Virus record (IMG/VR): IMGVR_UViG_3300045988_163275
Span: 1 to 64,000 of that record
Source of the DNA: a virus
Lineage: Duplodnaviria; Heunggongvirae; Uroviricota; Caudoviricetes
Direction: 5' to 3' (one strand)
Length of the DNA: 64,000 nucleotides
This document shows, piece after piece, positions 25,646 through 44,205 of the stretch. The number at the start of each line of letters is the position of its first letter. The stretch's first letter is position 1. The position numbers were made by a program, and so were the translations under genes. The notes beneath the pieces were generated by a model. The model ran no database searches. It saw only the letters and a list, made by a program, of their open reading frames with translations, and was not told the DNA's origin.

Positions 25646-25896
25646 CTGCGCTCGATATTGGTATTGATGAAGTCCAGACGAAGCGATTCCATCGCCCCCA
25701 CCATGACGTATGGGCGCCCACCGTTATGCCAGCAATCCATAACATTGCCGTCGTTGTCGATCATCAGCAGAGCCAGGCTCTGACTTTTGCCTTCTCTTGC
25801 GTACTGGAGTGCTTCTTCCAGCAGGCGGATGACTTCAACGTTGTTGTTGTCAGTCTCTTTCGATGGCTTCAGCTCTACGATCTTCAAATCAGGCAT
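25642..25896 (-). CDS. hypothetical protein
   Basis: 84 aa ORF overlapping its neighbours by a few nt (operon context). Confidence 0.35.
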   Translation of the reverse strand: MPDLKIVELKPSKETDNNNVEVIRLLEEALQYAREGKSQSLALLMIDNDGNVMDCWHNGGRPYVMVGAMESLRLDFINTNIERR

Positions 25897-27890: not shown

Positions 27891-27893
27891 TGT

Positions 27894-27910
27894 ATAAGTA
27901 CTTACTTACC
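27894..27910. repeat. TAAGTA-type palindrome
   Basis: tataagtacttacttacc; in the 64-bp divergent region between the ParB-like operon and the helicase gene. Confidence 0.5.
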
Positions 27911-27954
27911 ATAATAGCCAATTACCATACAAAAGGCACGAAGGAAAGAGGTTT

Positions 27955-29514: not shown

Positions 29515-29516
29515 GC

Positions 29517-29795
29517 ATGAGCGAGAAACGCGCTATTAACTGCCAGGTTAAGTTAACCGAAAAAGCAAACGATAAACTAGAGACCTTTCAGAATCGACTG
29601 CGTGAACGCAGCATAAAACTGTCAAAGGCAGACATCATCAATCTGGTGCTGTCCAATATGACGATGGGTGATTTTGATAAGATAGCTACGTCATTAGAGA
29701 CTACTGCAAAGGCTCGTGAAAAGGTCATGAAGATTTACGAAAACTCGGGTATGACCAAAGAAGATCTGGCCGATATTCTAAAACGCCTCGATTGA
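29517..29795 (+). CDS. hypothetical protein
   Basis: 92 aa ORF starting 3 nt after the helicase stop. Confidence 0.4.
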   Translation: MSEKRAINCQVKLTEKANDKLETFQNRLRERSIKLSKADIINLVLSNMTMGDFDKIATSLETTAKAREKVMKIYENSGMTKEDLADILKRLD

Positions 29796-29854
29796 GCATT
29801 ATGGCGCCTTGAGGCGCCATGATTTTCGTAAAGATAAGGATTTTGTTCGGCACA

Positions 29855-30277
29855 ATGAAACACGTATTACTTCCTCTGGTTGCTGCCTCCGCGTTACTTA
29901 TCACTGCATGTCAATCTCGTCCTATTCCTGTCTCTGAGGCAAAGCCAGCACCGCAGACCAGAATATTCAAATACCAATCTCCGGCGGCATCGACGCTGGT
30001 GGTTATGAGAGATAAAAGCATGGTGGGCGCCGGTTGCGACGCATCGATCTTCATCAATGGCGAAACCGTTGCAAAACTGGAAACAGGTGAAAAAGTCACT
30101 TTTCATCTGGATGCCGGAGAATGGATTGTTGGCGCCTCACTCGAAGACGCTGGGCTGTGCGCACTGAATCCTGCTCGTCAGGAACGCGAGACGATTACCA
30201 AAGCTGGCGAGACGAAAGTCTTCCGGGTGTTCACCAGTAATGCTGGTGACATCGATATCTTACCAACGACACTGTGA
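29855..30277 (+). CDS. lipoprotein (candidate superinfection-exclusion protein)
   Basis: Start at MKHVLLPLVAASALLITAC: signal peptide with lipobox LITA-C; mature domain about 120 aa with 2 further Cys. Confidence 0.5.
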   Translation: MKHVLLPLVAASALLITACQSRPIPVSEAKPAPQTRIFKYQSPAASTLVVMRDKSMVGAGCDASIFINGETVAKLETGEKVTFHLDAGEWIVGASLEDAGLCALNPARQERETITKAGETKVFRVFTSNAGDIDILPTTL

Positions 30278-30281
30278 CGAT

Positions 30282-30809
30282 ATGACGAATATTACTGACA
30301 TCACCTACGGGATTCCTGCAGAAGTCTGGCCGCGCGATTACACCAACGTGGAGAAAGCGCTGATGTTCTGGCGCAAGTCTCTTATTCCTGTAAGGGTCAC
30401 GATGGAAGATGGTCAGGTGTTCTGCATGTATGTTCAGGGTCTCATGTCGTCACGCAACAAGGTCGACCTTTGCCCTGCCCCGTTCGACAAAGATAATCGT
30501 ATAAGGCTCCCACTTGAGCGAATCAGCACGATTGAATCAGGTGTGACAGAAGGCATTGCACACGACTTCACGGGTCGGACAACGATACACCCAGACTATG
30601 TGGACAATCGGCCATCTCGCCGTGATTTCTTCAAAATTTGTCGCCAGGCCCATGAGATGCAGAAGTCTATAAGGGTCTACATGGCGGATGGCCGTGAAAT
30701 TGAGGGGGTGTCTTCAGGCGTTGACGCTTGTCAGGTCACACTCAACATGGGGGACGGTAGGAAGACAGTCGCCATGTTCGATTGGGTCGAACGGATTTTA
30801 CCGTTTTAA
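30282..30809 (+). CDS. hypothetical protein
   Basis: 175 aa from MTNITDITYG; last gene before the AT-rich island. Confidence 0.4.
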   Translation: MTNITDITYGIPAEVWPRDYTNVEKALMFWRKSLIPVRVTMEDGQVFCMYVQGLMSSRNKVDLCPAPFDKDNRIRLPLERISTIESGVTEGIAHDFTGRTTIHPDYVDNRPSRRDFFKICRQAHEMQKSIRVYMADGREIEGVSSGVDACQVTLNMGDGRKTVAMFDWVERILPF

Positions 30810-31054
30810 ATCTATAAGGGTAATAACCGGCTAAGTCCGGTTATTATTTTATTCGTCACTTCCCGTTATATTTATTTCCCACAAACTCGATTCCAATTTA
30901 AATATATAAGGGTGATTGGCTGAATAGAGAATTTATTTAGGCAACACCTTCGAGAAAATGCATTTTATTTCTAAGACTTTGATTTTTATTGAATAAAATT
31001 TTTCATTCCCGAACAAAAAAACTCTTGATTTTATTTTCTGTATGTCGATAATTA

Positions 31055-31125
31055 ATCACATCGAAAGCGAACGCGCTAACGATAAATAAATAAAAAATTA
31101 AGTTATCAATATTACATAAGGATTA
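31055..31125 (+). promoter_or_regulatory. sigma70-like promoter without operator palindrome (low-GC island)
   Basis: cTTGATTttattttctgtatgtcGATAATtaatcac in a roughly 320-bp AT-rich region upstream of 31131..31781; no AAACAAnTTGTTT copy. Confidence 0.45.
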
Positions 31126-31130
31126 ACATC

Positions 31131-31781
31131 ATGTCTAACGTTACCATTTCTAAAAAATCCATCATCGACGCTGCTGTAGTTATCGCTAATGAATTGCAAG
31201 TTGCAGCCAACAACGCTACTCAGACTTATAACAATCATTATCAGAATGGTACACACACAAAAGCGGATAAAGCCAACATGCTTGCAGCGTCTACCAAACT
31301 AGCATACTTCACCAACAACGTTTTAAACGCTGTTAATGATGAGAAATTAGCTGGTGTCTTTTACTACGCGATTAAAGCAAGCAAACAAGCGCCAGAAGTG
31401 TTTTTCCGCGAAGCTATGACAAATAGCTATTCACTCGAAAAATTGGTTTATCTGGTTAAATCAATTAAATCTGGCAAATGCGTTTATTCCGTCGCTGATA
31501 TGTCCGGATCTCGTGTATTCGCGTTAATCGATATGATTAACGACGAGATCGACACGTTCACTAATGGCGCTGTTTTCGATTTAATGAATGAAGCGAAAAA
31601 AGCCAACGAAATAAAATTAGACGCTGGATACACTCAAGCCAACCAGCTTATCAATCTTTGCGAACGTCTGGGACTGGTCGAAAAAATCAAAGGAATGGGT
31701 GCAGCGAAAAACGGATCACAGCAATATCGCTTCGTTAAAAATGATTTTTATAACTATCTGGCTGATGCTTTCAAAGCGTAA
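31131..31781 (+). CDS. hypothetical protein (low-GC island gene 1)
   Basis: 216 aa, Asn/Lys-rich, markedly lower GC than flanks; upstream AT-rich region with sigma70-like TTGATT-N16-GATAAT and no operator palindrome; hairpin immediately downstream. Confidence 0.5.
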   Translation: MSNVTISKKSIIDAAVVIANELQVAANNATQTYNNHYQNGTHTKADKANMLAASTKLAYFTNNVLNAVNDEKLAGVFYYAIKASKQAPEVFFREAMTNSYSLEKLVYLVKSIKSGKCVYSVADMSGSRVFALIDMINDEIDTFTNGAVFDLMNEAKKANEIKLDAGYTQANQLINLCERLGLVEKIKGMGAAKNGSQQYRFVKNDFYNYLADAFKA

Positions 31782-31787
31782 TTAGAT

Positions 31788-31812
31788 GGATATAGCGCCC
31801 ATAGTGGGCGCT
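31788..31812 (+). terminator. intergenic hairpin between island genes (attenuator-like)
   Basis: AGCGCCCATAGTGGGCGCT followed by a short T-run, then RBS AAGGAG. Confidence 0.4.
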
Positions 31813-31831
31813 AGTTTTAAGGAGCTTAATC

Positions 31832-32062
31832 ATGTTTGTTCTTATTGCTGGCGTTAACGTGCGCAATGATTATTTTGTTAATCGCATCGCTGGGATCGCG
31901 GGGTACGCTGGGCGCTCAGTCGAGTTTATAAATGAAACAACGCGCAAAATTGACTTATTGAACGACCAGGAGCGAAAAAAAGCAGACGTGAATGACGCTG
32001 ATATATTTTTAATGTTAAAAGCGTTTGTAGAAATAGGATTTGAAATCAGTTTACACAAATAA
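31832..32062 (+). CDS. hypothetical protein (low-GC island gene 2)
   Basis: 76 aa; RBS AAGGAG; followed by an intrinsic terminator. Confidence 0.45.
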   Translation: MFVLIAGVNVRNDYFVNRIAGIAGYAGRSVEFINETTRKIDLLNDQERKKADVNDADIFLMLKAFVEIGFEISLHK

Positions 32063-32092
32063 AATCGAGCGCCCACTATGGGCGCTTTTTTC
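32062..32092 (+). terminator. intrinsic terminator after low-GC island
   Basis: AGCGCCCACTATGGGCGC followed by TTTTTTCG; same stem as the intergenic hairpin. Confidence 0.7.
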
Positions 32093-32107
32093 GTTTCCAA
32101 TACTCCC

Positions 32108-32136
32108 ACCATAACGCGCCATCATTGGCGCGTTTT
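32108..32136 (+). terminator. second intrinsic terminator
   Basis: AACGCGCCATCATTGGCGCGTT followed by TTTTTATT. Confidence 0.65.
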
Positions 32137-32679
32137 TTATTGTCCGAAGTTAGCCAAAACAGACCAAAGGCAAGCGCCATAAAAGCGCCAATTTAACGCA
32201 TTTTTGCGAGTCGCAGTATCTGACCATTACCCACAATAAAAACACGTTATAGCACGTTTTACAGCGTTTTAGCGTGTTGCTTATTTTGTCGTGTCGTTGG
32301 CGTGATCCGCGCTATCCTTCGGGACGTGTCGGCAATATTGGCGCTATCCGTGGGCGCTCGCATATGATTGCCACGTTGGGCAACGTGTACGCGCTTACAG
32401 TGGTTTACCCACGGATTCACATAATCACATAGCGAAAGCTATCTGGATGGCCCAGGGGCTGAAACCCCACCAGCGCTACCCCAGCGCCGCTACGCAATTT
32501 CTGGCGCGATTCCGGGTTTCTCCCGCTCAGTTTTCTACATAAAGGCGACCCCCGCCGTTTCCCGAAAAAATCTTGGCCGTTTCCCGTCGGCTCATGAATG
32601 CGTTCCTCGCCGTTTCTGAAAATTTCCCTGCGGCAGCTGGTGGCTATAGAGAAAGGGCCGTTTCTGGCCCTCTTCTCAG

Positions 32680-33162
32680 TTACACGCCATCAAGGATGTG
32701 GATGCGGTTGCTTGCGTATACATTCAGCATAAAGTTAGCGCAAAACAGTTTCCATGTGTCAACGCCAGCGGCATACGTAATGTTTTTGCATTTTATTGCA
32801 TTGTTGGCGATCCACATCCCCTGCGATACTGCTTCATCGTCGGAAAATTTGAACGACGATTGAGTTTTAATCCAGACAGAAATCTGCGTAGCGAACTCAA
32901 TCAGCTTGGACTGGCAGAATCGCCCGGAGCGCACCGGAAAGACGAACGTTCCGAATCCAGAATTTACCACATATGCTTTCTCAAATACCCGCGAGTAACG
33001 ACGATTGCCAATGATGTCGCGTGCAATAATGCATTTTTCTTGTGCTGACAGTTCTACCGTCTCATTGTCGCGCCATGCACCAAGTACTCGTTTTTCAATG
33101 TCAGAGAACGTTACAGCGATATTGCCATGTGCGGGTGCGTTTACAGTAGCGATAAAATTCAT
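32680..33162 (-). CDS. hypothetical early protein
   Basis: 160 aa; conserved promoter plus palindrome module directly upstream. Confidence 0.45.
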   Translation of the reverse strand: MNFIATVNAPAHGNIAVTFSDIEKRVLGAWRDNETVELSAQEKCIIARDIIGNRRYSRVFEKAYVVNSGFGTFVFPVRSGRFCQSKLIEFATQISVWIKTQSSFKFSDDEAVSQGMWIANNAIKCKNITYAAGVDTWKLFCANFMLNVYASNRIHILDGV

Positions 33163-33179
33163 GATTAATTACTTATCGT

Positions 33180-33240
33180 AAATAACAAATTGTTTTCTTG
33201 TTGGTGTTAATTATCGTTGTACGAATAAGGCGTCAAAGTG
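33180..33240 (-). promoter_or_regulatory. promoter plus AAACAAnTTGTTT palindrome module
   Basis: Minus strand: CTTTGACG-N16-GATAAT-taacaccaacaag-AAAACAATTTGTTA, upstream of 32680..33162. Confidence 0.55.
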
Positions 33241-33366
33241 GAAAGTTGCGGTAGCCGGACGGGAACAGGTGGGTTTGTCGGTTGCCTGGAGGTAAGAGGT
33301 TGGTGTTTTTAGCCTGCGGGAAACAGGATGGTCATTTAAGGCCACCAGCATTGGTGGCCTTACTCT

Positions 33367-33648
33367 TTAGTGGAGCAGACCGATGTCGATGGTATCCCCT
33401 GAATCATCCACACGGATCATCAGCATGGCGAAGGCGTTTAGTGGATAGCTTGCGTGCCATTCAGGGAAGCGGTCATCTCGCATGAAGTCGGCAATGTCGT
33501 AAACGCAGCCCTCAAAGTGGAAGAATCGCGTGCTTACCTGCTCGTCATATTCCACATGATCCATTTCTTGCTGTTCTGTTTCCGGCAAGTCCAGCCATGA
33601 TTCAAGGAATACATTTTGTGCTTTAGGGGTAATGGTGAAATCAGTCAT
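33367..33648 (-). CDS. hypothetical early protein (acidic)
   Basis: Start at MTDFTITPKA with RBS GAGGA; promoter plus palindrome module upstream. Confidence 0.45.
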   Translation of the reverse strand: MTDFTITPKAQNVFLESWLDLPETEQQEMDHVEYDEQVSTRFFHFEGCVYDIADFMRDDRFPEWHASYPLNAFAMLMIRVDDSGDTIDIGLLH

Positions 33649-33664
33649 GAGCATATCCTCACTG

Positions 33665-33722
33665 CGTAAACATATTGTTTTCTTGTTGGTGTAATTATCG
33701 CAGTGTAGATAAGGCATAAAAG
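33665..33722 (-). promoter_or_regulatory. promoter plus palindrome module
   Basis: Minus strand: ...GCGATAATtacaccaacaagAAAACAATATGTTT, upstream of 33367..33648. Confidence 0.55.
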
Positions 33723-33983
33723 ACGTTAATACAGGCTGAATACACAAGAAAGGTTCTGGAAGTTGATAGCCAGGTTTCAAACTAACCTTCGGTTATTAAA
33801 AGTCATTTAAGACCACCAATGCTGGTGGCCTTAATAATTATCGCCCGATTACGCTAAGGATCTTTTCCTCAACTGATTTGTTGTTGCGACTAAACTGCCT
33901 TGCGTATCTTATGACAGAAGAGGCGTTTCGCTTTCTGACCATCTCGGCTCTCTCCTTCAGGCGTTTCTTGAAATCGCCCATAT

Positions 33984-34358
33984 TTACCACCAGGCGCAGA
34001 AGGTCAGTCTATTATTGTGAAAGTCGTGGTTCTTAATCAGATCTTCCACAATCTCTTTCAACTCCCCCACATCATGCCAGTAACCTTCATCGTACTCCTG
34101 ACTGCCGAAGAAAAAACCTTCCTGGGTAGGCAAGTACTCTTCGCAATTACTTTCGTTTATGTGCATCAAATGAGCCTTCAGAAAACAAATGTCATTCATC
34201 GTTAATTCTAAAAGCTCACAATTTTCGACTTCACCTACGTTGCGCTCCATCCACCCAACGAGCGCATTGAACTTACGGAAGTAAGCAACCTGCTTTCTGG
34301 ATGCCTCGTTATTCAGATCGTTTTTTGGCTGCGTCTCGATGTAGATATCAAGCCCCAT
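33984..34358 (-). CDS. hypothetical early protein
   Basis: Start at MGLDIYIETQ (RBS AAGGAAACC); palindrome copy upstream. Confidence 0.4.
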   Translation of the reverse strand: MGLDIYIETQPKNDLNNEASRKQVAYFRKFNALVGWMERNVGEVENCELLELTMNDICFLKAHLMHINESNCEEYLPTQEGFFFGSQEYDEGYWHDVGELKEIVEDLIKNHDFHNNRLTFCAWW

Positions 34359-34414
34359 GATGGTTTCCTTATTAAGTTGCTTCAGTGAAATCATTTTCAC
34401 AAATCAGATAAGGC

Positions 34415-34435
34415 AGAAAACAAATTGTTATCGGG
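34415..34435. promoter_or_regulatory. AAACAAnTTGTTT-type palindrome copy
   Basis: GAAAACAAATTGTTAT upstream of 33984..34358; flanked by the recurring GCCTTATCT block. Confidence 0.4.
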
Positions 34436-34475
34436 CATAAGAAAATGGCGCGGGGTACGCGCCATTCAAAGAGGA

Positions 34476-34871
34476 TTAAGCGAATACGCTTTCAGGGACA
34501 ATGGTGTCGATCTTTTCGCCGGAGATTATTCGCAGACCGTGTTGTCCCATCCAGGTACTATTGGTATTTAAACTCGATGTATAAACCGCATCGACCTTTT
34601 TCATCAAATTTTCAAACAACGTCTGATCCGCGCCACGGAAATGAGTTTCCAGTTTTATCAGTAAAGGGTCAGAAGCATTACTGATGCTTTGGTAACGCAC
34701 CGAATATTTCCCCTTTGTCGCCTCGCCGGTGCGAGTTAAGGTACTGGTGTGAACTTCTTCGCCGGAGGCATTATCGCGTAGCACAATTGTAATTTTTGCA
34801 ACTTTGTCTCCATTTTCCGTCTCTGATGCATAATACATATCCAGGGTCAGATTTTCGCGTTTAACGGTCAT
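34476..34871 (-). CDS. hypothetical early protein
   Basis: 131 aa; TAAGTA-type palindrome upstream. Confidence 0.4.
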   Translation of the reverse strand: MTVKRENLTLDMYYASETENGDKVAKITIVLRDNASGEEVHTSTLTRTGEATKGKYSVRYQSISNASDPLLIKLETHFRGADQTLFENLMKKVDAVYTSSLNTNSTWMGQHGLRIISGEKIDTIVPESVFA

Positions 34872-34908
34872 TTCACTCTCCTTAGTGTTTAATTTTTAAT
34901 TTTATTAT

Positions 34909-34927
34909 CATAAGTAAGTACTTACAA
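34909..34927. repeat. TAAGTA-type palindrome
   Basis: cataagtaagtacttacaat; upstream of 34476..34871. Confidence 0.5.
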
Positions 34928-34992
34928 TACAAAAAAGCCCCGAAGGATTGGCGGGGCTGTCGTACATTCGACTAACTACTGCTTGCACATGT

Positions 34993-35304
34993 TTAAGCTA
35001 CCGCCTGAACAGACGCTCGTTGGATCTCTTGTTGGGCGACACGGTTGGCTTCCATCAGCGCCAGTTCAAGCTGGTCCTCTGGCCACATTTTCTGGACCGA
35101 CATCCACCCTCTTCCACGCTGGCGACGAACTACCATCACATAGCGCGTAAAATTGCCCGCGTCGAAGGTAATGGCTTTTTCACGAAACAGACGGATAGAA
35201 GTCCCATTCGCTACGATATCCAGCAATGTGAGATGCCCCATTAAGGTTGGTTTTTCTTTTCTATCCTGGCCTTCAGCAAGACCCAGCACCAATGAAGTAT
35301 TCAT
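34993..35304 (-). CDS. hypothetical early protein
   Basis: Start at MNTSLVLGLAEG (RBS GGAG); promoter plus palindrome module upstream. Confidence 0.4.
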   Translation of the reverse strand: MNTSLVLGLAEGQDRKEKPTLMGHLTLLDIVANGTSIRLFREKAITFDAGNFTRYVMVVRRQRGRGWMSVQKMWPEDQLELALMEANRVAQQEIQRASVQAVA

Positions 35305-35311
35305 CACCACT

Positions 35312-35385
35312 CCGTAAACAAATTGTTTTCTCAATGGCGTAAATAATACCAGTGTAAAAACGGCTACAAAGCATATTGCTCAGGC
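35312..35385 (-). promoter_or_regulatory. promoter plus palindrome module
   Basis: Minus strand: TTTGTAGCC...TATTATttacgccattgagAAAACAATTTGTTTacGGAG, upstream of 34993..35304. Confidence 0.5.
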
Positions 35386-35464
35386 ACATGAATTATCTAA
35401 AGGTGGTTCTGCCCTGCGGCTACAGAGAAGTTAAGCCAGCAGGCGGTGCTGGCTTTGGTTGGGC

Positions 35465-35794
35465 TTACGCGAATAACTCAAGGAATTCCTGCACGTCCCA
35501 ATGCTGGACAAGGTGAAGATAGAGCTTAGAAATCACGTCATTCTCGCTATCGCATGTGAAGTAGTACTTCTGGCTGCGGTTGTATGTGTCCACACAAAAT
35601 TCGCTCATATCCATAAAGTCAGCATCTTCACCCATGTCGCAAATAATCAAAGCAGGAGCATCATCACGAGTCATCAGCTCAAGCACCCAGCGCGAATTGA
35701 TCAGCGTGGAAGACCAACCTTCTAACTCATAAAACTGGTCAAACTCTTTTTGAGTCATTTTCTTGATTTGGTTGATGTCGATATTTGCAAACAT
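35465..35794 (-). CDS. hypothetical early protein (acidic)
   Basis: Start at MFANIDINQ (RBS AAGGAT); promoter plus palindrome module upstream; acidic (DMGEDADFMDMSEF). Confidence 0.4.
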   Translation of the reverse strand: MFANIDINQIKKMTQKEFDQFYELEGWSSTLINSRWVLELMTRDDAPALIICDMGEDADFMDMSEFCVDTYNRSQKYYFTCDSENDVISKLYLHLVQHWDVQEFLELFA

Positions 35795-35802
35795 AAAGCA
35801 AT

Positions 35803-35882
35803 CCTTAAACATGTTGTTTTCTGAATTGCGTAAACAATACCAGTAAGAAAACGGCCACAAAGTATATCGTTACGGTGCTGCG
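35803..35882 (-). promoter_or_regulatory. promoter plus palindrome module
   Basis: Minus strand: ...TATTGTttacgcaattcagAAAACAACATGTTTAAGGAT, upstream of 35465..35794. Confidence 0.5.
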
Positions 35883-35933
35883 CTGCCCCGGAGGTTAATA
35901 GCGACAAAAGCCACCGTGCTGGTGGTCTCACTC

Positions 35934-36152
35934 TTAATCTTCGTCGTCCGGGAACTCGCTGTGTACCGCGTCCACCAGCTCCCGCTTTTCATCTTCACTA
36001 AGCAGGTGCCAGATATCCTTCCCTTTGGGCGATTCCCCTTCTGCCGGGACGAACGACCACAACTTGCGGTACAACTCCGGCCCCACTGCATCCAGACACT
36101 CAGCCAGGGAATCCACGCCCCACACCTCAACCGTCACAGGCATCTTAATCAT
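35934..36152 (-). CDS. hypothetical small acidic protein
   Basis: 72 aa, very acidic C-terminus (LLSEDEKRELVDAVHSEFPDDED); RBS GAGGA; promoter plus palindrome module upstream. Confidence 0.45.
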   Translation of the reverse strand: MIKMPVTVEVWGVDSLAECLDAVGPELYRKLWSFVPAEGESPKGKDIWHLLSEDEKRELVDAVHSEFPDDED

Positions 36153-36181
36153 CTCTTCATCCTCACTTCGTTTCTATAACG

Positions 36182-36242
36182 TCTAAATATGTTGTTTACT
36201 TGTTGGTGTTATTATCGCAATAAGACAAAGGCGAAAAAGGAT
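36182..36242 (-). promoter_or_regulatory. promoter plus palindrome module
   Basis: Minus strand: CCTTTTTCGCCTTTG...GCGATAATaacaccaacaagTAAACAACATATTT, upstream of 35934..36152. Confidence 0.55.
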
Positions 36243-37382
36243 TTTATGTCGTGAAAGCCAGGCTGGGCAGTGAATATCCGGGAACGACACGGGAACCAGT
36301 ATTTACGATATTCTGCTCTACGCGCGCCGCAGGGCTGGTGGGCAGAATTTTCTTCTCCCCGAAAACCTACTGAAATCGCTTGAGACCCGAGGATGGTCTG
36401 GCAGACTGGAGTTCAGCAGCTGCACGAGAGGGAACGACACTCCCCCGCGATTTTCAGGCGAGTGAAGAGTAAGGCGCACTCCCGAAGATTTCCCGCACCG
36501 CTCCCGCAGTCGTCTCTCACTCTGTACCGGGATGTACCCGTTTCCCGACCGGCAGCCAGCCTTTTCCCGGTTCGTATAGCGAGATTCCCACCGTTTCCCT
36601 GAAAAACCTCCAGCCTTTTCCCTGCGGCGACGTTCCCGTTCCTGAAAAGGGACATGGCCTTTTCCCTGGATGGCCCGAAGGCTGACCGAAGGGGTGGATA
36701 GGGACGTTACGGGGGATGAAAGCTATGGCTTGAATTTATACGAAGAAAGTGGCGATACCCCTCCTTCCCTTCCCACTTATACCTCCCACGAATTTTCTCT
36801 CTTATGTGGGCATAAATCTTCTCTCTGATAACGCTCAATACGGCGACTATTCCTGTGGGTGAAATGGGTGGTTTGTTCTTTCTACCGGCATATGTGGTTT
36901 CGTTCTTCTTGAGGTGGTTCTTCTCTGTGTTTTCGTCAGGGTTGTTCTCGTTGTTTTGGTGATTGTTCTTCTCTGTGTATGGAGTAATGGCAGGTGGGCG
37001 ATTCCTTTCGTTATTGTATTTGAGTTGTTTGTCTTGAGAGCGTGAAAGGCTTTTGTGGTTATTTGTGTATTGAGTAATGGCGTTTCCCCGCGAATGTTCT
37101 GTTTCGTGTCTTTGGGGATTGAGGGAGTCCTTGCGGTAACAGGCTTCGTTAGAGTTTCAGTGGTTCTGGTGTTTATTCGCTGTTTGGGGAATGGCGTGTA
37201 GTGGGTATCGCATGTATGAATGTTTCGAGTTGCCTGTGAAAGTTAGGTTGGTTGTCCGGTAGCCTGGGAAGAAGAGGTGGGTCTTTTCAGTAGCCTGCCA
37301 TAAAGAGGTTGGTTGTTTTTGGGAATGTGGGTAATGGCGTCTCTGGGTTTCCTGTGGGTGTGGTTAGCTTGTTTTCTTGTGT

Positions 37383-37403
37383 CTGAAAACAACTTGTTTA
37401 GAT
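37383..37403 (+). promoter_or_regulatory. plus-oriented palindrome copy inside the gene-free region
   Basis: ttgttttcttgtgtctGAAAACAACTTGTTTAG on the plus strand; no obvious downstream protein gene. Confidence 0.35.
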
Positions 37404-37741
37404 GTCCAATATAACGCAACGGGAGCGCTTCTGAGCGTGTCTGTTTTTGGGTGGTATCACGAGTCGTTTTTGACGTTTTGGTCGCAGGGAGATGGATTCT
37501 GGTACGCTGGATTTGGGTATAAGAGATGGCGTGCGAAAACATCAACTTTTTAGACCAAATCAGGGGAAAGCGTTGACTTTACGTTGATGTGTTATTTATT
37601 TGTTTTCTTATGGGTGTAATTAGCTTAAATGCCTTGTCACGCCTGGGATTGAGTGGGGTAGGGTGGTGGGGAAAGTGGCGATCAACGGACTCTTATAGAA
37701 ATCCTCAATTTGTGACCGCCAATATCAACGAGTTGCAGCCG

Positions 37742-38311
37742 TTAGTTGTTCAGATAGGCATCCGGAACGCGCACATAAAAGTTTCTTTCGCCGGTCAGTT
37801 CCAGAGTAACGTTTATGTCGTTGCCGTTATCCAGCGTAGCCGTCGCTTTATAGAACTTGTCCGTCACCTTGTCCTGAATTGTCACCTTCATACATTTCGG
37901 CGCTGTGGTTCCGTTATTCTCTTTCAGAATGGTCGTTACGAGAGGACAAGCCGCTTCTTCAAGAGCAACCTCTTCCTGGTGTGGGATACCGATGAAGATG
38001 TTACCAGCAAGCAACGCGACGATTACGATAAAAGGAAGTCGACTGCCTTTTGTAACGGTGGCACGTTTCCAGAGATAGACCGGAAGGAGAAATACTCCCC
38101 ACAGGATGGCCGGTGGTTCATACCCTGCATCAGACAATGCCATTCTGTCAGCCACCAGAAAGCCGAGTCCAGCGACTCCACCTATCACTATTGCATAATT
38201 CAAATACTCATCTGGCGGTACTCCAAAGAAGAGAGGCAGTAAAGCTAGAAGCCACGCATAAGCATTATTCAGAGGTTTTGTTTGTTGGTTCTGGGTTTCC
38301 ATCACATCCAT
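37742..38311 (-). CDS. integral membrane protein (candidate exclusion protein)
   Basis: Three predicted TM helices (WLLALLPLFFGV, AIVIGGVAGLGFLV, ILWGVFLLPVYLW, FIVIVALLAGNIFIGI) and a C-terminal soluble domain; last gene of a three-gene early operon. Confidence 0.5.
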   Translation of the reverse strand: MDVMETQNQQTKPLNNAYAWLLALLPLFFGVPPDEYLNYAIVIGGVAGLGFLVADRMALSDAGYEPPAILWGVFLLPVYLWKRATVTKGSRLPFIVIVALLAGNIFIGIPHQEEVALEEAACPLVTTILKENNGTTAPKCMKVTIQDKVTDKFYKATATLDNGNDINVTLELTGERNFYVRVPDAYLNN

Positions 38312-38387
38312 TCCATCAGATTAAAAAGCGGTACTATGTTACCAATTTTCTTCGCTTATATGACATGATTACTCAACGAGTGGGCGA

Positions 38388-38708
38388 TCACCATTCCCAT
38401 GCAGGTAGCCCATCCACCAGCTCGGCGTCGCAATCGAAGTGAACCACGTCAAAGCCGTCATCCAGTATGGTCTGTATGTTGGAGATCGCCTCTTGGGAAA
38501 TGCCGTACTCACGCAGTTCTTCCTTCCAGTCATTCCCTCGCATTCCAGCACGAACAATCCAGCCGTACTGTGTACCGTGTACCCAATTCAACCCGCGATC
38601 AGTAAGTGGGTCGAAGCAGGCAATGGGTAGCCGTTCTGAATCCGCTGCCGTGACGTGGGCGGTGCTGATCACCGCCGTCTTATACGATTCGGTGATTTTC
38701 AGCATCAT
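38388..38708 (-). CDS. hypothetical early protein
   Basis: 106 aa, start/stop coupled to the upstream gene. Confidence 0.45.
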   Translation of the reverse strand: MMLKITESYKTAVISTAHVTAADSERLPIACFDPLTDRGLNWVHGTQYGWIVRAGMRGNDWKEELREYGISQEAISNIQTILDDGFDVVHFDCDAELVDGLPAWEW

Positions 38709-38938
38709 GCCTTCTCCTTTGGAAACAGAATGTTGGCCGTGTCAGAAATGACATCCCAATTCACGCCGACGCTGGCGTCATGGCACTCTTTGATTTTTCG
38801 CAAAACCTGAACGCACTGTTCGTCAGTCAGGTCTGGTCGCCCTTCACCTACATCTTCCTTGTGCCACATCACCATCAGCAGCGGCTCGTCTTCTGGGTAG
38901 TTCTCCAGCTTTTCGATAATTTCTTTCGCGGTTCCGAA
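38705..38938 (-). CDS. hypothetical early protein
   Basis: Start at MFGTAKEIIEKL with RBS AAGGAG; promoter plus palindrome module upstream. Confidence 0.45.
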   Translation of the reverse strand, partial: FGTAKEIIEKLENYPEDEPLLMVMWHKEDVGEGRPDLTDEQCVQVLRKIKECHDASVGVNWDVISDTANILFPKEKA

Positions 38939-38949
38939 CATGATTAACT

Positions 38950-39012
38950 CCTTAAACAATTTGTTTTCTTATTGGTATTATTATCTCAAATAACGAAAGG
39001 CAGAAAACAAGA
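38950..39012 (-). promoter_or_regulatory. promoter plus palindrome module
   Basis: Minus strand: CCTTTTCTGCCTTTCG...GAGATAATaataccaataagAAAACAAATTGTTTAAGGAG, upstream of the 38938-37742 operon. Confidence 0.55.
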
Positions 39013-39026
39013 TGTTTAAGGGATGA

Positions 39027-39350
39027 CTAGGTGAGTTTGAAGTCGTCTATGTCATCAACAAACTCCATATACCTGGCTTCGACACTCGACAATCTGATCA
39101 GATACGCAAGCCCGTAACTTAGTGAAGTGGGTTGCTCCAGCACAAATTCGAACCCATCCTCATGCGTTTTACCAAGCCAGAACCCCCCACCGTATTCTTT
39201 TTCACGTTGGAAGAAAACGAACTGTCCGGGTATTAGGTGCTTGAGTGCTTCGCCCCTATAGACGATCACATATTTAGAATTCTTGCTGCCCATTGCTCGC
39301 CTCGCAATACTGCACATATAAACAGTGGTATTTATTACGGTACTGGTCAA
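39027..39350 (-). CDS. hypothetical protein
   Basis: 107 aa ORF (true start may be internal MGSKNSKYVIVYRG); palindrome copy upstream. Confidence 0.35.
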   Translation of the reverse strand: MTSTVINTTVYMCSIARRAMGSKNSKYVIVYRGEALKHLIPGQFVFFQREKEYGGGFWLGKTHEDGFEFVLEQPTSLSYGLAYLIRLSSVEARYMEFVDDIDDFKLT

Positions 39351-39377
39351 CTTTACGGGTTAATTGAATAACAAGAT

Positions 39378-39400
39378 GGTGAAAACAATTTGTTTTGGCG
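39378..39400. promoter_or_regulatory. palindrome copy in the region between genes 39350 and 39481
   Basis: GAAAACAATTTGTTTTGG. Confidence 0.4.
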
Positions 39401-39480
39401 CTTGAGATTTTGCAAATCGCACCTACATGGAAAACGGCAATTTTTGAAACCTGATTTGACCCATGTGAAAGGAGGAAACG

Positions 39481-39684
39481 ATGAAGACCTATGATCGCAA
39501 CCGTAACACTATCACTACCGGCAGCCGAGTGATGGTGGCAACGAATGGTGCAACGGGAGTCATCAAGGAAATCTGCGGAGAAGGCAAATCAGAAGAACAA
39601 TTACGCCGCTCTGACTGCGTGTCTATCGAAGGTGTGGAAGATCTGTTCTGCCCAATGGATTTAGTTCGCCTGGGATTCCAATAA
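39481..39684 (+). CDS. hypothetical small protein
   Basis: 67 aa with strong RBS AGGAGG; terminated by palindrome plus hairpin. Confidence 0.45.
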   Translation: MKTYDRNRNTITTGSRVMVATNGATGVIKEICGEGKSEEQLRRSDCVSIEGVEDLFCPMDLVRLGFQ

Positions 39685-39704
39685 TTACACCACTAATTAA
39701 ACAA

Positions 39705-39745
39705 ATTGTTTAAGGCCACAAATAATGGCCTTATCTGGCTTACGG
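39705..39745. terminator. palindrome plus hairpin between convergent genes
   Basis: TTAAACAAATTGTTTAAGG followed by hairpin AAGGCCACAAATAATGGCCTT, between 3' ends of 39481..39684 (+) and 39740..40444 (-). Confidence 0.4.
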
Positions 39746-40444
39746 AACAGCAGTAATCAGATCGCAAATGCCTGTTTTAGTTAAATCACTATTTAGCTTC
39801 TGAAAATTGGCATTCAGCATTGCGGTATGTATTCGATTCTCAAGTTCAAAGAAGAGATCGATCTTGCCCTCTTTGGCTGCCACCTTCTTCCAAATATTCA
39901 CCTGGTCATCTGCGATACGACTTGCGCAGGTGAACAAGAACGAACTCCCTCTGGGAAGGGATGTCGTGCTGTAGTATTCACCGTCAACTTCAATATACTT
40001 AGCTCGGAATGACTCCAGAGTTAGCTTTTTACCGCTCTCAGCCTGCTTTGTGTCTGCCTTGCTTGTCTTTTCCTGAACTTCAGGCTGTTTCTGCACAGGC
40101 TTTGGTGTCTCATTGACCACCGCAGTGCTGGCCGAACCATCCAAACTCTTGAGGCCATTAATTTGGATTAGATAAGCCAACTCCAGAGTCTTATCACCAG
40201 TGAGTTTTCCACGCATACTTACCCATTGACGCTGAACCGTCTTTAAGGCGTCTGCGTCCCCCGGGTTTGCTTTGAGTGCGTTGGAATAGGTAGAGCTAAG
40301 TTGTTCGTCTAATTTTGACAGGCGTTCGTTATCGCAGATTTTGTGTTCGATTTCTGCCGAAGCCTTTTGGCAGTCAAAGCTGGCTGCAAATACAGCCGGC
40401 GATGCCACCAACAATGATGCCAGTAGGATATTTTTCATATTCAC
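39740..40444 (-). CDS. secreted protein with lysozyme-inhibitor-like (LprI/DUF1311-type) N-terminal domain
   Basis: Signal peptide (MNMKNILLASLLVASPAVFA), then FDCQKASAEIEHKICDNERLSKLDEQLSSTYSNALK...QRQWVSMRG, resembling the Cys-containing DUF1311 pattern; family assignment from memory. Confidence 0.45.
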   Translation of the reverse strand: MNMKNILLASLLVASPAVFAASFDCQKASAEIEHKICDNERLSKLDEQLSSTYSNALKANPGDADALKTVQRQWVSMRGKLTGDKTLELAYLIQINGLKSLDGSASTAVVNETPKPVQKQPEVQEKTSKADTKQAESGKKLTLESFRAKYIEVDGEYYSTTSLPRGSSFLFTCASRIADDQVNIWKKVAAKEGKIDLFFELENRIHTAMLNANFQKLNSDLTKTGICDLITAVP

Positions 40445-40476
40445 TCCATAAATATAAAAGCGCCTGACTATAGCAC

Positions 40477-40692
40477 TTAACCGATTGCTTCTCTCATCTG
40501 ATTGTGAAGCTCTTTCAGCCCATTACGTACCGCGTTCATGATACGTTCCAGGTATTGGTATCTGGGGTTTGGCACCGTTGGCCAACCGGCATACCACGGA
40601 TCGTCACCAAACAGACTCAGCAGTTCGTTACCGACACCGAAACAGCAGCAACTTTCTTTTACGTCATCAGCGTTTTCTGCCTCGTCCCACAT
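40477..40692 (-). CDS. hypothetical small protein
   Basis: 71 aa ORF in the early cluster. Confidence 0.3.
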   Translation of the reverse strand: MWDEAENADDVKESCCCFGVGNELLSLFGDDPWYAGWPTVPNPRYQYLERIMNAVRNGLKELHNQMREAIG

Positions 40693-40738
40693 ATTGCGGG
40701 CCTGCTCTGCGTCGATTTCTCTCTCTCCCTGCGCAACT

Positions 40739-40978
40739 TTATGATTTCGGATTTGACGAAAAGCAGGTTTGCGTCGTTGTCATCGTCGACCGTACTGAAG
40801 TGGCACACTGAATTTGGCCGTCTGTAATGGGCAGATCCGGCAACTGTTTAAAAACTTCCATCTGCTCATGGATACGCAGAAACCACCTTGCCAGCTCCAT
40901 CTGCTCACCGCGGGTGAGGGGATTATTCAGCGGGGACTTAACAAAAGCGGAGACTCGCTCGACAAGCAGATCATTCAT
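40739..40978 (-). CDS. hypothetical small protein
   Basis: Start at MNDLLVERVS, ATGA-coupled to the upstream gene. Confidence 0.35.
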   Translation of the reverse strand: MNDLLVERVSAFVKSPLNNPLTRGEQMELARWFLRIHEQMEVFKQLPDLPITDGQIQCATSVRSTMTTTQTCFSSNPKS

Positions 40979-41664
40979 GCCGCGCACCTCTCTGCTTTCT
41001 CCTGCAATTCGCGAACGAACTCGACCAAAGAGCCACCTGGCGGGATCTGGCATTCCTCAACCAACTGGAAGTATATGTCTGCGGCCGCGCGTGTGTTCGA
41101 GCCTTTGTTTAGCTGCTCTTCGCGCAGCGCATCACGTTCATTAATCAAACGGACGCACTCGCCGTTACGCTGATCCACAACGGCCTCAAGTTCAGCGATA
41201 CGTTCGCCAGGAGTCTTACCTTCTTTACGTTGAATGGTGACGGTAAACTCACCCATTTCAGGAACGTCGTACCCCAGCTCCAGGTAGTTTCTGGCCCCGC
41301 TACGAACAAACTCACCGGCAAACATGGTTGCGAACATCGCAGAGGCCATTTCACCTTTAAACAGAGACTCCAAATCTAACGGAGTACCCGCAGCCAGAGC
41401 CGTTTTTTCTGTATCAATTGCAGACATGAATGCATCAAATTCACGAGCACGTTTTTCCAGGTCTCTCCATTGCTCGCTCCAACGTTTAGCAACGAAGTCT
41501 ATGAATGTTTTCGCGGATTCATCATAATCCCCTTCAAACTTAACAGTGCCTTTGTCAATGATGATCTGGTCTACTGCTTCCTCTGCATAACCTCTCATTA
41601 CAAATTTGAAAGGAAAGTCGGCATGGCTTTTGACGTTAAAACGCTCTAACGGAAGATTGCTCAT
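40975..41664 (-). CDS. hypothetical protein
   Basis: 229 aa; TAAGTA-type palindrome upstream; no recognisable motif. Confidence 0.45.
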   Translation of the reverse strand: MSNLPLERFNVKSHADFPFKFVMRGYAEEAVDQIIIDKGTVKFEGDYDESAKTFIDFVAKRWSEQWRDLEKRAREFDAFMSAIDTEKTALAAGTPLDLESLFKGEMASAMFATMFAGEFVRSGARNYLELGYDVPEMGEFTVTIQRKEGKTPGERIAELEAVVDQRNGECVRLINERDALREEQLNKGSNTRAAADIYFQLVEECQIPPGGSLVEFVRELQEKAERCAA

Positions 41665-41706
41665 GTGTTTTTTCTCTTATCATATAGTCACTATATTCTT
41701 ACATAG

Positions 41707-41728
41707 ATTAGGTAAGTATTTACCTCTC
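41707..41728. repeat. TAAGTA-type palindrome
   Basis: attaggtaagtatttacctctc; between the methyltransferase stop and 41664 start. Confidence 0.5.
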
Positions 41729-43412
41729 ATTTAACGCGTTTAAAAACGTATACGCTGACAGTAATCCCGGTGTCTTCAAACATGTTAGTAAACGACTTCC
41801 CTTTGGCATAAACGTAATTATCCAGCGTCATCCAGTTTAGAATTGGCGCGTCGCCCGGCAGCACTGCTACCAGACGCCCACCGACTTTCAGATGTCCCAG
41901 CGCGGCCAACGTGTGCTCTCTGTGACGGCCAAGAGAGTAGGGCGGGTTCATGACGATTTTGTCGAACTGATAACCTGCGTTGTCCTCAGACCACTTCATG
42001 AAGTCGCAGCAGACCGTATTTGTGTACCCCTTGCCAAGCAGGATATCAGCGAAGAGAGGTGCGACTTCTATGCAGGTAACGTCTTCCGGATTGGCGTCGA
42101 TGCAGGCCAGCAGATCTCCGCGCCCGGCTTCAGGCTCCAGCAGCTTCTCACCTGGCTTCAGCTCGATGGCTCTGGCAACGTACTCCGCTATCAAACGCGG
42201 GGTAGGGTAGAACTGGTGTGATTTTGTATCCGGTATTAAGCCGGTGGCCACAATCGTATTGAGCGTATGGCCGATCTCATACGGGAACTGCCAGTGCTTG
42301 TTCTCCTGCACGCCGCCAATAAAGCTCAGTGTACGCTCCAGCTCTTCCACCTGTGACTTCTGAAGACCGGAATCAGAGAAGTACCATACGCGTTTGTCAT
42401 TGCCAGATCGCCCGTCGCGAAGCGCAGTACGCACCGGCTCGGAGATCGTCTTCTGGATTAACCCGAACTGTTTTGGTGCCCGTGTTTTGGGCGCAGTACG
42501 ACATGGAGCCGGGATTGCAGCGGGCATACTGTAAGCCAGCACCTCATTCAGCTTCCAGGCTACGTCAGGATGTATTTCAAAGTGAACGTTGCCGTTCTTA
42601 AACATCTTCACACGCATCAGGTTTCCGTCGACATTCATCCAGTCGCCGGTCTGGCAGTCATTTGCTCGATACGCAGCTGACAGCATCTCGGCCGTGCGGT
42701 TGATGGTGATAAATTCTTTGTGTGCAAAGAAATGCAACATGACGCGCAGGTCGTCTATGTAATCCTCTTTCCGGTAGTTAACGCTGACGCTGTCCCGCCA
42801 GAAATCGGAAATGCAGTCGGCGATGATCAGACGCTCGCTGAAGCCGTTCGTCTTATTGGTCTTGTGAGCAGGACTCAACGCCTTAAACAAGCCATACACG
42901 CGCTCAGAGAGATATTTGTGCCTGTCATTCAGCAAATTAAGCATCGTTGGTATGACCGTTTCTGCTTTGAACTCAGGTACACCAACGAACTCTTTAACCT
43001 TCATTTGATAGCCAGTTCTGTCAGTCTTGATCGTTTCCTGCTTGCCCTCGATAAACTGTTCACGCCACTCGTCGCGGCGGGATGCTGGCATGATCAGCAG
43101 AACGTTGGTCATATCCGTGACCTTCTTCCAGTACTCGGCCCAGATATTTTGTTTCACCCATTCCAGGTCGACTTTGTCCAGCCAGGTTCTGTTAAAGCGT
43201 GTGCGCTCGTCGTCCGGCCGGTGGTTAAGTCGCAGTAGACGGTTAATCATGTTGTGGCGTTCGTCGCCATAAACGAAGTCGTGAACCTTATTCATGAACG
43301 CAATCTCTTTCTCGCATTCGGCCACAATTTCGTGGATAACATTCATTTCCTGCCGGTAGTCAATACCGGTGTCTGGAGTGATAGAGTCAATGATGGAAAG
43401 GGCTGTATTCAT
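41727..43412 (-). CDS. DNA methyltransferase (N6-adenine/N4-cytosine type) with large N-terminal domain
   Basis: C-terminal methyltransferase motifs: motif I (LLEPEAGRGDLL) and motif IV (VMNPPYS); about 390-aa N-terminal region of unknown function; true ATG at MNTALSIIDS; promoter plus palindrome module upstream. Confidence 0.7.
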   Translation of the reverse strand: MNTALSIIDSITPDTGIDYRQEMNVIHEIVAECEKEIAFMNKVHDFVYGDERHNMINRLLRLNHRPDDERTRFNRTWLDKVDLEWVKQNIWAEYWKKVTDMTNVLLIMPASRRDEWREQFIEGKQETIKTDRTGYQMKVKEFVGVPEFKAETVIPTMLNLLNDRHKYLSERVYGLFKALSPAHKTNKTNGFSERLIIADCISDFWRDSVSVNYRKEDYIDDLRVMLHFFAHKEFITINRTAEMLSAAYRANDCQTGDWMNVDGNLMRVKMFKNGNVHFEIHPDVAWKLNEVLAYSMPAAIPAPCRTAPKTRAPKQFGLIQKTISEPVRTALRDGRSGNDKRVWYFSDSGLQKSQVEELERTLSFIGGVQENKHWQFPYEIGHTLNTIVATGLIPDTKSHQFYPTPRLIAEYVARAIELKPGEKLLEPEAGRGDLLACIDANPEDVTCIEVAPLFADILLGKGYTNTVCCDFMKWSEDNAGYQFDKIVMNPPYSLGRHREHTLAALGHLKVGGRLVAVLPGDAPILNWMTLDNYVYAKGKSFTNMFEDTGITVSVYVFKRVK

Positions 43413-43421
43413 GATTGCACC

Positions 43422-43482
43422 ATTAAACAAATTGTTTTCTTATTGGTGTTATTTTCTCAAAGCTAAAAAGGCGTAAAAGCAG
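43422..43482 (-). promoter_or_regulatory. promoter plus palindrome module
   Basis: Minus strand: GCTTTTACGCCTTTTT...GAAAATAACACCAATAAGAAAACAATTTGTTTAATGG, upstream of the methyltransferase gene. Confidence 0.55.
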
Positions 43483-43552
43483 CATTCACAGGCGTTGCAG
43501 CTGATTTAAGACGTAAAAAGGGGGCTTTCGTCCCCTGTACGCAGGTGAGAGA

Positions 43553-44125
43553 TTAGTGGTGTACGTGCTGCGTTTTGTACGGCTGTTTGTTCAGGTTGTG
43601 GCGGTGCATAAGCTCGCGCATCATGTCTTCAAGACGGCTCTTGGTGTCGTCAAGCTGGTCGGCCATTGCCCCCAGCAGCTGGCGAAGGGCCATCGGATCG
43701 TCGCTGTTCAGCTCAGGCATTTTGAACCCAGCCTGGGAAGACATCAGTTTGAAAGCGGCCAGCAACATCGCCAGAGAAGACTTCAGCCCGGCGATTTCAT
43801 GATCTTTGCTGGCGTTGGTTTCATCTGCCTTGACTGAATCCAGTGAGCACTTCGGCTTGCTTACCATTTCCAGAGTTGCCTGAAGTTTGTCGGCGCGTTC
43901 TTTCTCTTCCAGATACGCTTCGCCGAAATGACGCGCCAGCATCACAATTTCAATCGGATCATCAATCATGCTTGAGAACTTGAGAACGCTGAAAAGGCGG
44001 TCAATAGGGGAGGCGTCGTCTTCGTGACCAACCACAAGACCCATGATCTCAACCAGTTCGGCCGCACCAACTTTTTTAATCACGCTTTCAACTTTGGCAT
44101 TAGTTTTTTTGCATTTTTCACACAT
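43553..44125 (-). CDS. hypothetical protein
   Basis: 190 aa, N-terminal CxxC (MCEKCKK); promoter plus palindrome module upstream. Confidence 0.45.
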   Translation of the reverse strand: MCEKCKKTNAKVESVIKKVGAAELVEIMGLVVGHEDDASPIDRLFSVLKFSSMIDDPIEIVMLARHFGEAYLEEKERADKLQATLEMVSKPKCSLDSVKADETNASKDHEIAGLKSSLAMLLAAFKLMSSQAGFKMPELNSDDPMALRQLLGAMADQLDDTKSRLEDMMRELMHRHNLNKQPYKTQHVHH

Positions 44126-44141
44126 GTGTTCTTCCTTATGC

Positions 44142-44205
44142 TTTTAAACAAGTTGTTTTCTTAATTGTTTAATTGTCTCAAATTCTATGATGATGTGAAG
44201 AGTTG
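44142..44205 (-). promoter_or_regulatory. promoter plus palindrome module
   Basis: Minus strand: ...ACAATTAAACAATTAAGAAAACAACTTGTTTAAAAG, upstream of 43553..44125. Confidence 0.5.

Follow-up and report, generated by a model that had tools for sequence, protein, structure and literature searches.

Phage P4 has a bipartite origin whose two parts, ori and crr, lie about 4.5 kb apart, other plasmid prophages such as N15 carry dispersed centromere sites, and phage T5 contains a non-coding repeat region that is thought to hold an injection stop signal. To our knowledge, almost nothing is known about the plasmid-to-phage replication switch of SSU5/pHCM2-type phage-plasmids, which occur widely among clinical Klebsiella, E. 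coli, Salmonella, Enterobacter and Citrobacter, with defence systems among their cargo. Here we analyzed a gene-free block in positions 1 to 64,000 of the IMG/VR record IMGVR_UViG_3300045988_163275 (hereafter, the window), which is part of an SSU5/pHCM2-type phage-plasmid of E. coli. The block, whose conserved extent runs from about 36180 to 37735, is in our firm view a discrete, single-copy, cis-acting non-coding module of these phage-plasmids that is inherited as one unit. We tentatively propose that it is a repressor-wired phage-mode (lytic) replication origin or replication-control site, to which we assign a probability of roughly 0.3. A literature search found no publication on the locus, on its transcripts or on the genome ends of SSU5-like elements.

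The records nearest to the window were E. coli plasmids with 98-99% identity, and Salmonella phage SSU5 and Escherichia phage PhiR41_1 matched part of the query only, with 83-90% identity. The window contains structural genes, repA (61626-62681) and, at 32.6-44 kb, a cluster of small genes on the - strand, and the remainder of the closest plasmid carries genes for DnaE, a DnaB-like helicase, a ligase, a 5'-3' exonuclease and an integrase. A small repressor-like protein is encoded at 34445-34684. A sensitive DNA search detected homologues of the block in 858 PLSDB plasmids, among them plasmids of Klebsiella (448), Escherichia (224), Enterobacter (91), Salmonella (49), Citrobacter (25) and Cronobacter (10); query coverage was at least 80% in 674 of the 858, and the length of the block stayed at about 1.53-1.62 kb. 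When 76 IMG/VR loci, anchored on a gene neighbouring the block, were scanned with profiles of its left, core and right parts, the three parts were found in the same order in nearly all of them. In addition, a profile search of metagenome contigs found all three parts in order in 41 of 41 true homologues. The block was identical in type across IncFIB, rep_cluster_488 and rep_cluster_763 plasmids, and scans of genomes, viruses and metagenomes for more divergent relatives returned the same family alone, at 55-99% identity. A 49-kb sequence considered as a deletion derivative proved to be an incomplete linear assembly. On the replicon the block is single-copy, and paralogous arrays occur only around a gene for a 160-aa protein.

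Both flanks of the block are variable, and it sits as one unit between swappable gene cassettes. On the right, conservation stops at 37735, immediately next to the stop codon of a cargo gene that varies: depending on the relative, it is a 570-nt or 1191-nt hypothetical gene, a DUF262 gene or another. Its left neighbour is a 72-aa gene (35934-36152, -) that keeps its position and length in relatives and exists in two unrelated versions, whose proteins begin MIKMPVTVEVW and MYKHLNISITLCGEE, which looks like cassette replacement. In pHCM2 and SSU5, a 243-nt + strand gene replaces 36245-36440. In the E. coli plasmid CP099103.1, a natural insertion mutant, an IS3-family transposase interrupts the block. 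Furthermore, Klebsiella IncFIB/IncHI1B plasmids of about 200 kb (e.g. NZ_CP058860.1, 3001-3462) carry the right third of the block only (window 37257-37735), where a DUF262 gene and a type I restriction-modification system follow immediately downstream, which suggests that the block edge and a defence island move together from one plasmid type to another. An RNase HI gene (rnhA; 40003-40590 in NZ_CP027155.1) is found roughly 2.5 kb right of the block in Klebsiella members and is missing from the E. coli element of the window.

The initial annotation had seen no convincing open reading frame (ORF) here, and this was borne out. The longest ORFs within 36250-37600 are 100 aa (with a TTG start) and 80 aa, ORF maps disagree among 16 homologues, and PGAP annotations of relatives either call no gene across the block or give small ORFs without consistency. 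No codon periodicity was detected in any frame or 120-nt tile of the block. Two kinds of reading frame were considered as hidden genes. A + strand frame ending at 36962 (33 codons, hydrophobic peptide) is open in all relatives, but its substitutions are distributed 30/26/25 over the three codon positions, with no third-position excess, whereas the adjacent real gene from the same eight plasmids, used as a positive control, gave 18/9/39 (p = 2e-5); these counts ruled the frame out. The ORFs behind four invariant ATGs, which lie in GTAATGGCG repeats, were rejected with lengths of 7-104 codons and unrelated peptides. Between the Citrobacter/pHCM2 and Klebsiella lineages the block is 0.70-0.75 identical, and the adjacent gene is 0.75-0.78 identical overall and 0.55-0.59 identical at third codon positions. 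Since the block lies above this third-position benchmark, its constraint is about that of coding sequence. These comparisons indicate that the block has no conserved ORF and is not translated, and that purifying selection acts on it with about the strength seen for a gene. It is very improbable that the block is a neutrally drifting decayed cassette or holds small protein genes: these ideas could draw on the open frame, on the invariant ATGs and on an array/segment/array layout that mirrors the module of the 160-aa gene, but conservation is well above the neutral benchmark, and a tblastn comparison of the core with the neighbouring proteins revealed no relic (E > 0.3). In particular, no tblastn similarity supported the core as a pseudogene of the 160-aa gene.

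Two kinds of direct-repeat array lie in the block. The first is an iteron-like CC(G/T)TTTCCC array (36530-36680, +), in direct orientation throughout, with copies at 36538, 36560, 36591, 36614, 36658 and, in degenerate form (CCGTTCC), at 36636, mostly in a 22-23-nt register. CCKTTTCCC has eight matches in the 64 kb against 1.07 expected, and seven of the eight fall in this block and a related block about 4 kb away, all on the + strand. The CCGTTTCCC/CCTTTTCCC repeats of the initial annotation are thus real, but instead of at least eight copies from 36340 onwards there are five exact copies at 36538-36666 plus degenerate ones, and only two or three copies are followed by TGAAAA. The second array consists of three tandem 30-31-nt units GT(A/T)GCCTG-N7-(G/T)AGGT(G/T)GGT (37223-37319, +), with four units in one relative. 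Among indels of at least 4 nt, 21 of 35 matched a length of 10.5, 21 or 31.5 nt to within 1.5 nt, compared with an expectation of about 35%, and several correspond to whole 22- or 31-nt repeat units. The 22- and 31-nt registers and the helical-turn indels fit proteins that would bind on one face of double-stranded DNA.

Both families recur in the related block, which for the first family confirms the initial annotation. The paralogous CCGTTTCCC array (32551-32634, +) has two exact copies at 32555 and 32577 and a degenerate CCGTTTCTG at 32609, and a 30-nt tandem repeat of three GTAGCCTG-N7-GAGGTKGGT units (33249-33338, +) matches the array at 37223-37319 in the same order. The two paralogous arrays are collinear with 36587-36648 and 37245-37320 (spacing 658 nt vs 617 nt in the block) and bracket the 160-aa gene (32680-33162, -) and its promoter, the 30-nt repeats being upstream of that promoter. 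The CCGTTTCCC array is situated between two strong terminators (32067-32134), at which the + strand operon to its left ends, and the terminator of the 160-aa gene (32650-32678). Its location in this transcriptionally quiet gap argues for a DNA site. The 160-aa protein has a confident structure model with neither a structural neighbour nor a family match, and for this reason cannot be named as the binder. Type III toxin-antitoxin (ToxI-like) repeats were considered and rejected: the 30-nt units are only 64-77% alike and without an Rfam match, and for the 160-aa protein there is neither a Pfam match nor a structural neighbour, be it ToxN-like or of another kind.

Such arrays could also belong to a non-replicative DNA-binding hub, that is, a centromere-like or silencing site loaded by three ParB_N-domain proteins and an ABC-type ATPase encoded 9-10 kb away or by another regulator of the element. 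The unit-sized indels in 22- and 31-nt registers, the two array pairs 4 kb apart, the single-copy conservation between recombining flanks and the presence of the ParB_N genes (25.9-27.9 kb) are consistent with a hub. We nevertheless consider it improbable: the ParB_N genes are 9 kb off with no adjacent parAB operon, there is no palindromic parS-like site, the arrays being direct and the only inverted repeat being 8 bp, and P1-type boxA/boxB words, counted by eye, occur at chance frequency. Moreover, P1/pMT1-type partition genes presumably lie beside repA outside the window, and a centromere would leave unexplained the 800-bp strand bias described below.

The block is also wired to the regulation of the element. 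A palindromic 13-nt operator, AAACAA-NN-TTGTTT, occurs at 15 sites in window 24315-44158 (24315, 24340, 33183, 33668, 34418, 35316, 35807, 36185, 37387, 38954, 39005, 39383, 39699, 43425 and 44146). It normally lies inside a canonical unit composed of TGnGATAAT (extended -10), ACACCAAYAAG, the palindrome, a Shine-Dalgarno sequence (SD) and ATG; such units precede nearly every small early gene, and two copies are located ahead of terS. The set of sites appears to define the regulon of a putative repressor. By its sequence, the block carries one full and one half copy of this operator, which is predicted to control the early genes and the late operon. The full copy, AAACAACTTGTTTA, follows a conserved palindrome TTGTTTTC-N8-GAAAACAA (together 37369-37403, +) and has no gene downstream. 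The half copy belongs to a degenerate early-gene unit (ACACCCATAAGAAAACAA; 37599-37628, -), which has half of the palindrome only, neither SD nor ATG, and a -10 hexamer that is not kept. When 12 canonical units were combined into a profile, it matched the block only at 37383-37403 and, in degenerate form, at 37599-37628. With only two matches, the core is not a pile of decayed promoters, and an origin of the block as a graveyard of decayed promoter units was refuted.

The core itself (36841-37640, +) is a strand-asymmetric, G+T-rich domain. The strong G+T skew reported initially was confirmed, with a peak of 0.735 against a window mean of 0.504 (sd 0.037), and no deviation of 0.12 or more was found elsewhere in 98 kb of plasmid. 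The bias is kept in 34 of 34 homologues, in which the G+T content of the core is 0.67-0.75. G+T reaches 78% at columns that are at least 90% conserved and 65% at variable columns; for comparison, 32 long ORFs of the replicon have, at the third codon position of the coding strand, a mean of 0.52 and a maximum of 0.577. G<->T exchanges were seen in 82 columns, compared with 14 for A<->C exchanges and 98 for transitions. This G<->T dominance was dropped as independent proof of selection, being largely predicted by base frequencies, and the argument rests on 0.65 at variable sites compared with the replicon maximum of 0.577. The G+T-rich strand is kept so either by selection or by exceptional local single-strand exposure. 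With either cause, the two strands are not functionally equivalent, whether through RNA or through single-stranded DNA, and the bias would imply a role for one strand in single-stranded form. Near the right end of the core lies the most conserved stretch of the block (37536-37611), with ACATCAAC and CGTTGAC-N4-CGTTGAT repeats and then a run rich in A+T. These most conserved bases are overlapped by the 40-mer of lowest stability in the block (37591-37630), which ranks among the 0.55% least stable in the window.

In the proposed phage-mode origin, the element's own replisome (DnaE, DnaB-like helicase, ligase and 5'-3' exonuclease) would use the block, and a putative initiator would bind the arrays. 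Release of the repressor at the internal operator would lead to local transcription or opening near the easily melted 37590-37630, and displacement or priming of one strand would take place in the structure-free, strand-biased segment. The smaller array pair 4 kb away could be an auxiliary site, as crr is for ori in phage P4. The selection on a non-coding unit that is widespread and single-copy between variable flanks, the collinear paralogous arrays, the 22-nt register and unit-sized indels, the array in the untranscribed gap, the operator copy in the block, the strand bias kept at variable columns, the low-stability stretch on the most conserved bases and the replisome genes all argue for this proposal, and no other candidate for a second origin was seen on the replicon. 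On the other hand, several observations weigh against it. The block contains no conserved DnaA box or IHF site, a sigma-70 promoter scan of both of its strands gave 0 predictions, no initiator gene is adjacent, and the 160-aa protein has no recognisable DNA-binding fold. The absence of an adjacent ParAB counts against an origin and a centromere alike. Cumulative GC skew on a reconstructed 111-kb circle tracks gene orientation and has no inflection at the block, and the biased segment, at 800 bp, is far longer than known unwinding elements. Finally, four related contigs lack the block, with homology that stops at about 36175; these fit a function needed in phage mode only, but fit a dispensable element equally.

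A bolder version, which we hold to be quite unlikely, is that the core acts single-stranded, either as a repressor-gated R-loop or strand-displacement initiation zone or as an essentially A/C-only, structure-free long RNA. In the former case, the G+T-rich strand would be a long-lived displaced strand served by the element's own DnaE replisome; in the latter, the RNA would sequester a host single-strand RNA-binding factor (Rho or Hfq) at the switch to lytic growth. We know of no described counterpart of either mode in phage-plasmids.

The possibility of a long non-coding RNA, which had been raised initially, was narrowed by structural analysis. Rfam gave 0 matches at the gathering score in the window and, for 32200-37900, only chance-level matches at E up to 5; a tRNA/tmRNA search found nothing. 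Folding z-scores of 200-nt tiles were about 0 on both strands, and the - strand transcript of the core is nearly structure-free, at -14 to -22 kcal/mol per 200 nt. An alignment of 34 non-redundant homologues, on average 0.71 identical, gave a structure conservation index of at most 0.3 on both strands of 36840-37740; the only exceptions were the small palindrome (37369-37392) and, at the right end, an invariant inverted repeat of 8 bp. On the + strand of the left part, a hairpin with GNRA-type loops (UUCCU-GAAA-AGGGA and variants) is 87% paired, but it showed no compensatory changes and did no better than shuffles; the covariation term was -1.2. Structure conservation, Rfam and covariation thus exclude a structured long non-coding RNA, and leave an unstructured one as a candidate.

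Two further explanations involve such an unstructured RNA. According to the first, the block is a Rho-dependent insulator: - strand read-through from the cargo would yield an untranslated, C-rich and G-poor RNA that loads Rho, keeping cargo transcription out of the repressed early lytic genes on the same strand, and the left part, where C exceeds G on the + strand, would serve + strand transcripts likewise. Untranslated, unstructured C-rich RNA is known to recruit Rho in enterobacteria. The neighbouring genes are all on the - strand, cargo stop codons abut the block, and no intrinsic terminator is predicted on the - strand from 37742 to 36190. As - strand RNA, the nearly unstructured core (A 0.39, C 0.31, G 0.15, U 0.155) forms the longest stretch of C>G in the window, with a C/G ratio of 2.1 over 650 nt, and both the left part of the block and 32440-32680 have C>G on the + strand. 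However, a rut site needs about 80-100 nt, yet in the core one column in two is conserved to at least 90%, in the form of specific words, and U, whose depletion is not a Rho requirement, is depleted along with G. An insulator also leaves the 22-nt and 31-nt arrays and the internal operator unexplained, the CCGTTTCCC array at 32551-32634 sits behind terminators, in a gap without transcription, and the right neighbour in Klebsiella members is a + strand gene pointing away. We therefore regard an insulator as conceivable but doubtful.

According to the second, the block would give rise to an unstructured decoy (sponge) RNA, A/C-rich (-) or G/U-rich (+), which titrates an RNA-binding factor through its overall composition and three or four copies of a motif of about 30 nt. 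This dispersed repeat, TGTTCTTCTCYGTGTATKGAGTAATGGCR, has a nearly invariant copy 1 at 36963-36991, copies 2 (with GAGTAATGGCG) and 3 (with GGGGAATGGCG) at 37053-37083 and 37167-37197, and a partial copy 4 at 37310-37340, all on the + strand, and its ATG is invariant. The GTAATGGCG units of the initial annotation, confirmed as two exact and two one-mismatch copies (36984, 37074, 37188 and 37331), belong to this longer repeat. The proposed partners of the decoy are a host factor such as Hfq or Rho, or the element's own FljA-like post-transcriptional repressor. A full-length FljA-family protein (Pfam Flag1_repress PF03614, E = 2e-95) is encoded at 30240-30809 (+), about 6 kb from the block, and FljA-type proteins act on mRNA (PMC2652032). 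The gene is also present in phage-plasmids of non-flagellated Klebsiella, so that its target is probably on the element and not fliC. The near-invariance and single orientation of the repeats, the strand-specific composition kept at variable sites, the lack of folding, as in known linear-motif sponges, and the degenerate early-gene unit at the upstream end on the - strand all suit a decoy. Nevertheless, the block offers neither a credible promoter nor a credible terminator: conservation does not extend to the -10 of the 37600 unit, and the stem of a single weak terminator-like site (37425-37448, +) is not kept in Klebsiella members. Indel lengths also favour DNA helical turns. A decoy RNA accordingly seems unlikely to us.

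The remaining parts of the block are as follows. Its left edge is the early-gene promoter/operator unit of the 72-aa gene (36184-36239, -), with TGnGATAAT, ACACCAACAAG, AAACAA-NN-TGTTTA, SD and ATG. A variable left segment (36245-36500) contains one Chi (36334-36341) and a conserved word CAGAAT..TC.TCTCCCCGAAAACCTACTGAAA, and a conserved junction (36700-36800) between the first array and the core comprises GTTACGGGGGATGAAAG, TTGAAT, GCGA, the polypyrimidine run CCCCTCCTTCCCTTCCC and CTTATA. In the right terminal conserved block (37677-37735), both the inverted repeat GGCGATCA-N29-TGACCGCC and a GATC are invariant. Outside the block, a second gene-free stretch (32063-32679, 617 nt), has, besides its two strong + strand terminators, two 32-nt units in tandem (GTTGGCGTGATCCGCGCTATCCTTCGG / GTCGGCAATATTGGCGCTATCCGTGGG; 32296 and 32328) as well as recurring short words of type ACGTTTTA / AGCGTTTTAG.

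The Chi octamer GCTGGTGG, which the initial annotation had listed as a feature of the locus, is indeed present at 36334 and 32636, but the 64 kb contain 21 copies, distributed over both strands (positions include 3392, 6030, 10421 and 63340), whereas shuffled sequence would give 1.8. Since Chi is enriched replicon-wide, the single Chi in the block is uninformative on this locus; the enrichment presumably reflects protection against RecBCD. Two near-identical terminator hairpins (TTAAGGCCACCAGCATTGGTGGCCTTA; 33336-33362 and 33808-33834), located after successive small early genes, contain Chi in the stem. The RepA iterons TATCCACTGTAGTGAG are found in at least 20 copies at 61.0-63.3 kb, with a spacing of about 21 nt, in both orientations and on both sides of repA, a layout that corresponds to a P1-like origin with a control array. 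The block repeats were considered as RepA iterons and rejected: their sequence differs, CCKTTTCCC is absent at repA, and repA is 25 kb away. Consistently, the block is constant across three replicon types, which argues that its repeats are not RepA iterons.

The block is the largest conserved non-coding element of SSU5/pHCM2-type phage-plasmids and lies at the border of their variable cargo region; its right boundary would account for the site of cargo cassette exchange. If it is indeed a phage-mode origin or a master cis-regulatory site, it would provide a handle for studying or disabling induction, and a G+T/A+C strand bias maintained in this way is uncommon enough to merit interest on its own account.

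Compared with known systems, the block resembles rut regions and Rho insulators of horizontally acquired DNA in being untranslated and unstructured, with C>G on the strand of the surrounding genes and downstream of their stops, but it is about ten times longer and shows sequence-specific conservation, U depletion, DNA-type arrays and an operator. Sponge RNAs (CsrB/CsrC for CsrA; CrcZ for Hfq/Crc) share its repeated short motifs, and the - strand of the block is CrcZ-like in being A/C-rich, although GGA-in-loop architecture, an Rfam match and a defined promoter or terminator are missing. The T5 region is likewise gene-free, repeat-rich, more than 1 kb long and beside small, individually promoted early genes; unlike for T5, we know of no two-step injection or long terminal repeats in SSU5-like phages. 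In the strand-displacement version, the G+T-rich strand would be the displaced one, as the heavy strand of mitochondrial DNA is. With the P4 origin the block shares two clusters of the same short repeats about 4 kb apart in cis, but it has no adjacent P4 alpha-type primase-helicase, and the repeat sequence is unrelated. From iteron origins (P1/F RepA, lambda ori) it differs in that its repeats are not those of its own RepA, 25 kb away, in that no initiator is adjacent and conserved DnaA/IHF sites are absent, and in that its asymmetric segment spans 800 bp rather than about 40 bp. Like these origins, however, it is a single-copy conserved site that combines direct repeats of about 22 bp with an easily melted, strand-asymmetric stretch beside them and a repressor-controlled transcription signal nearby, as lambda ori does with pR.

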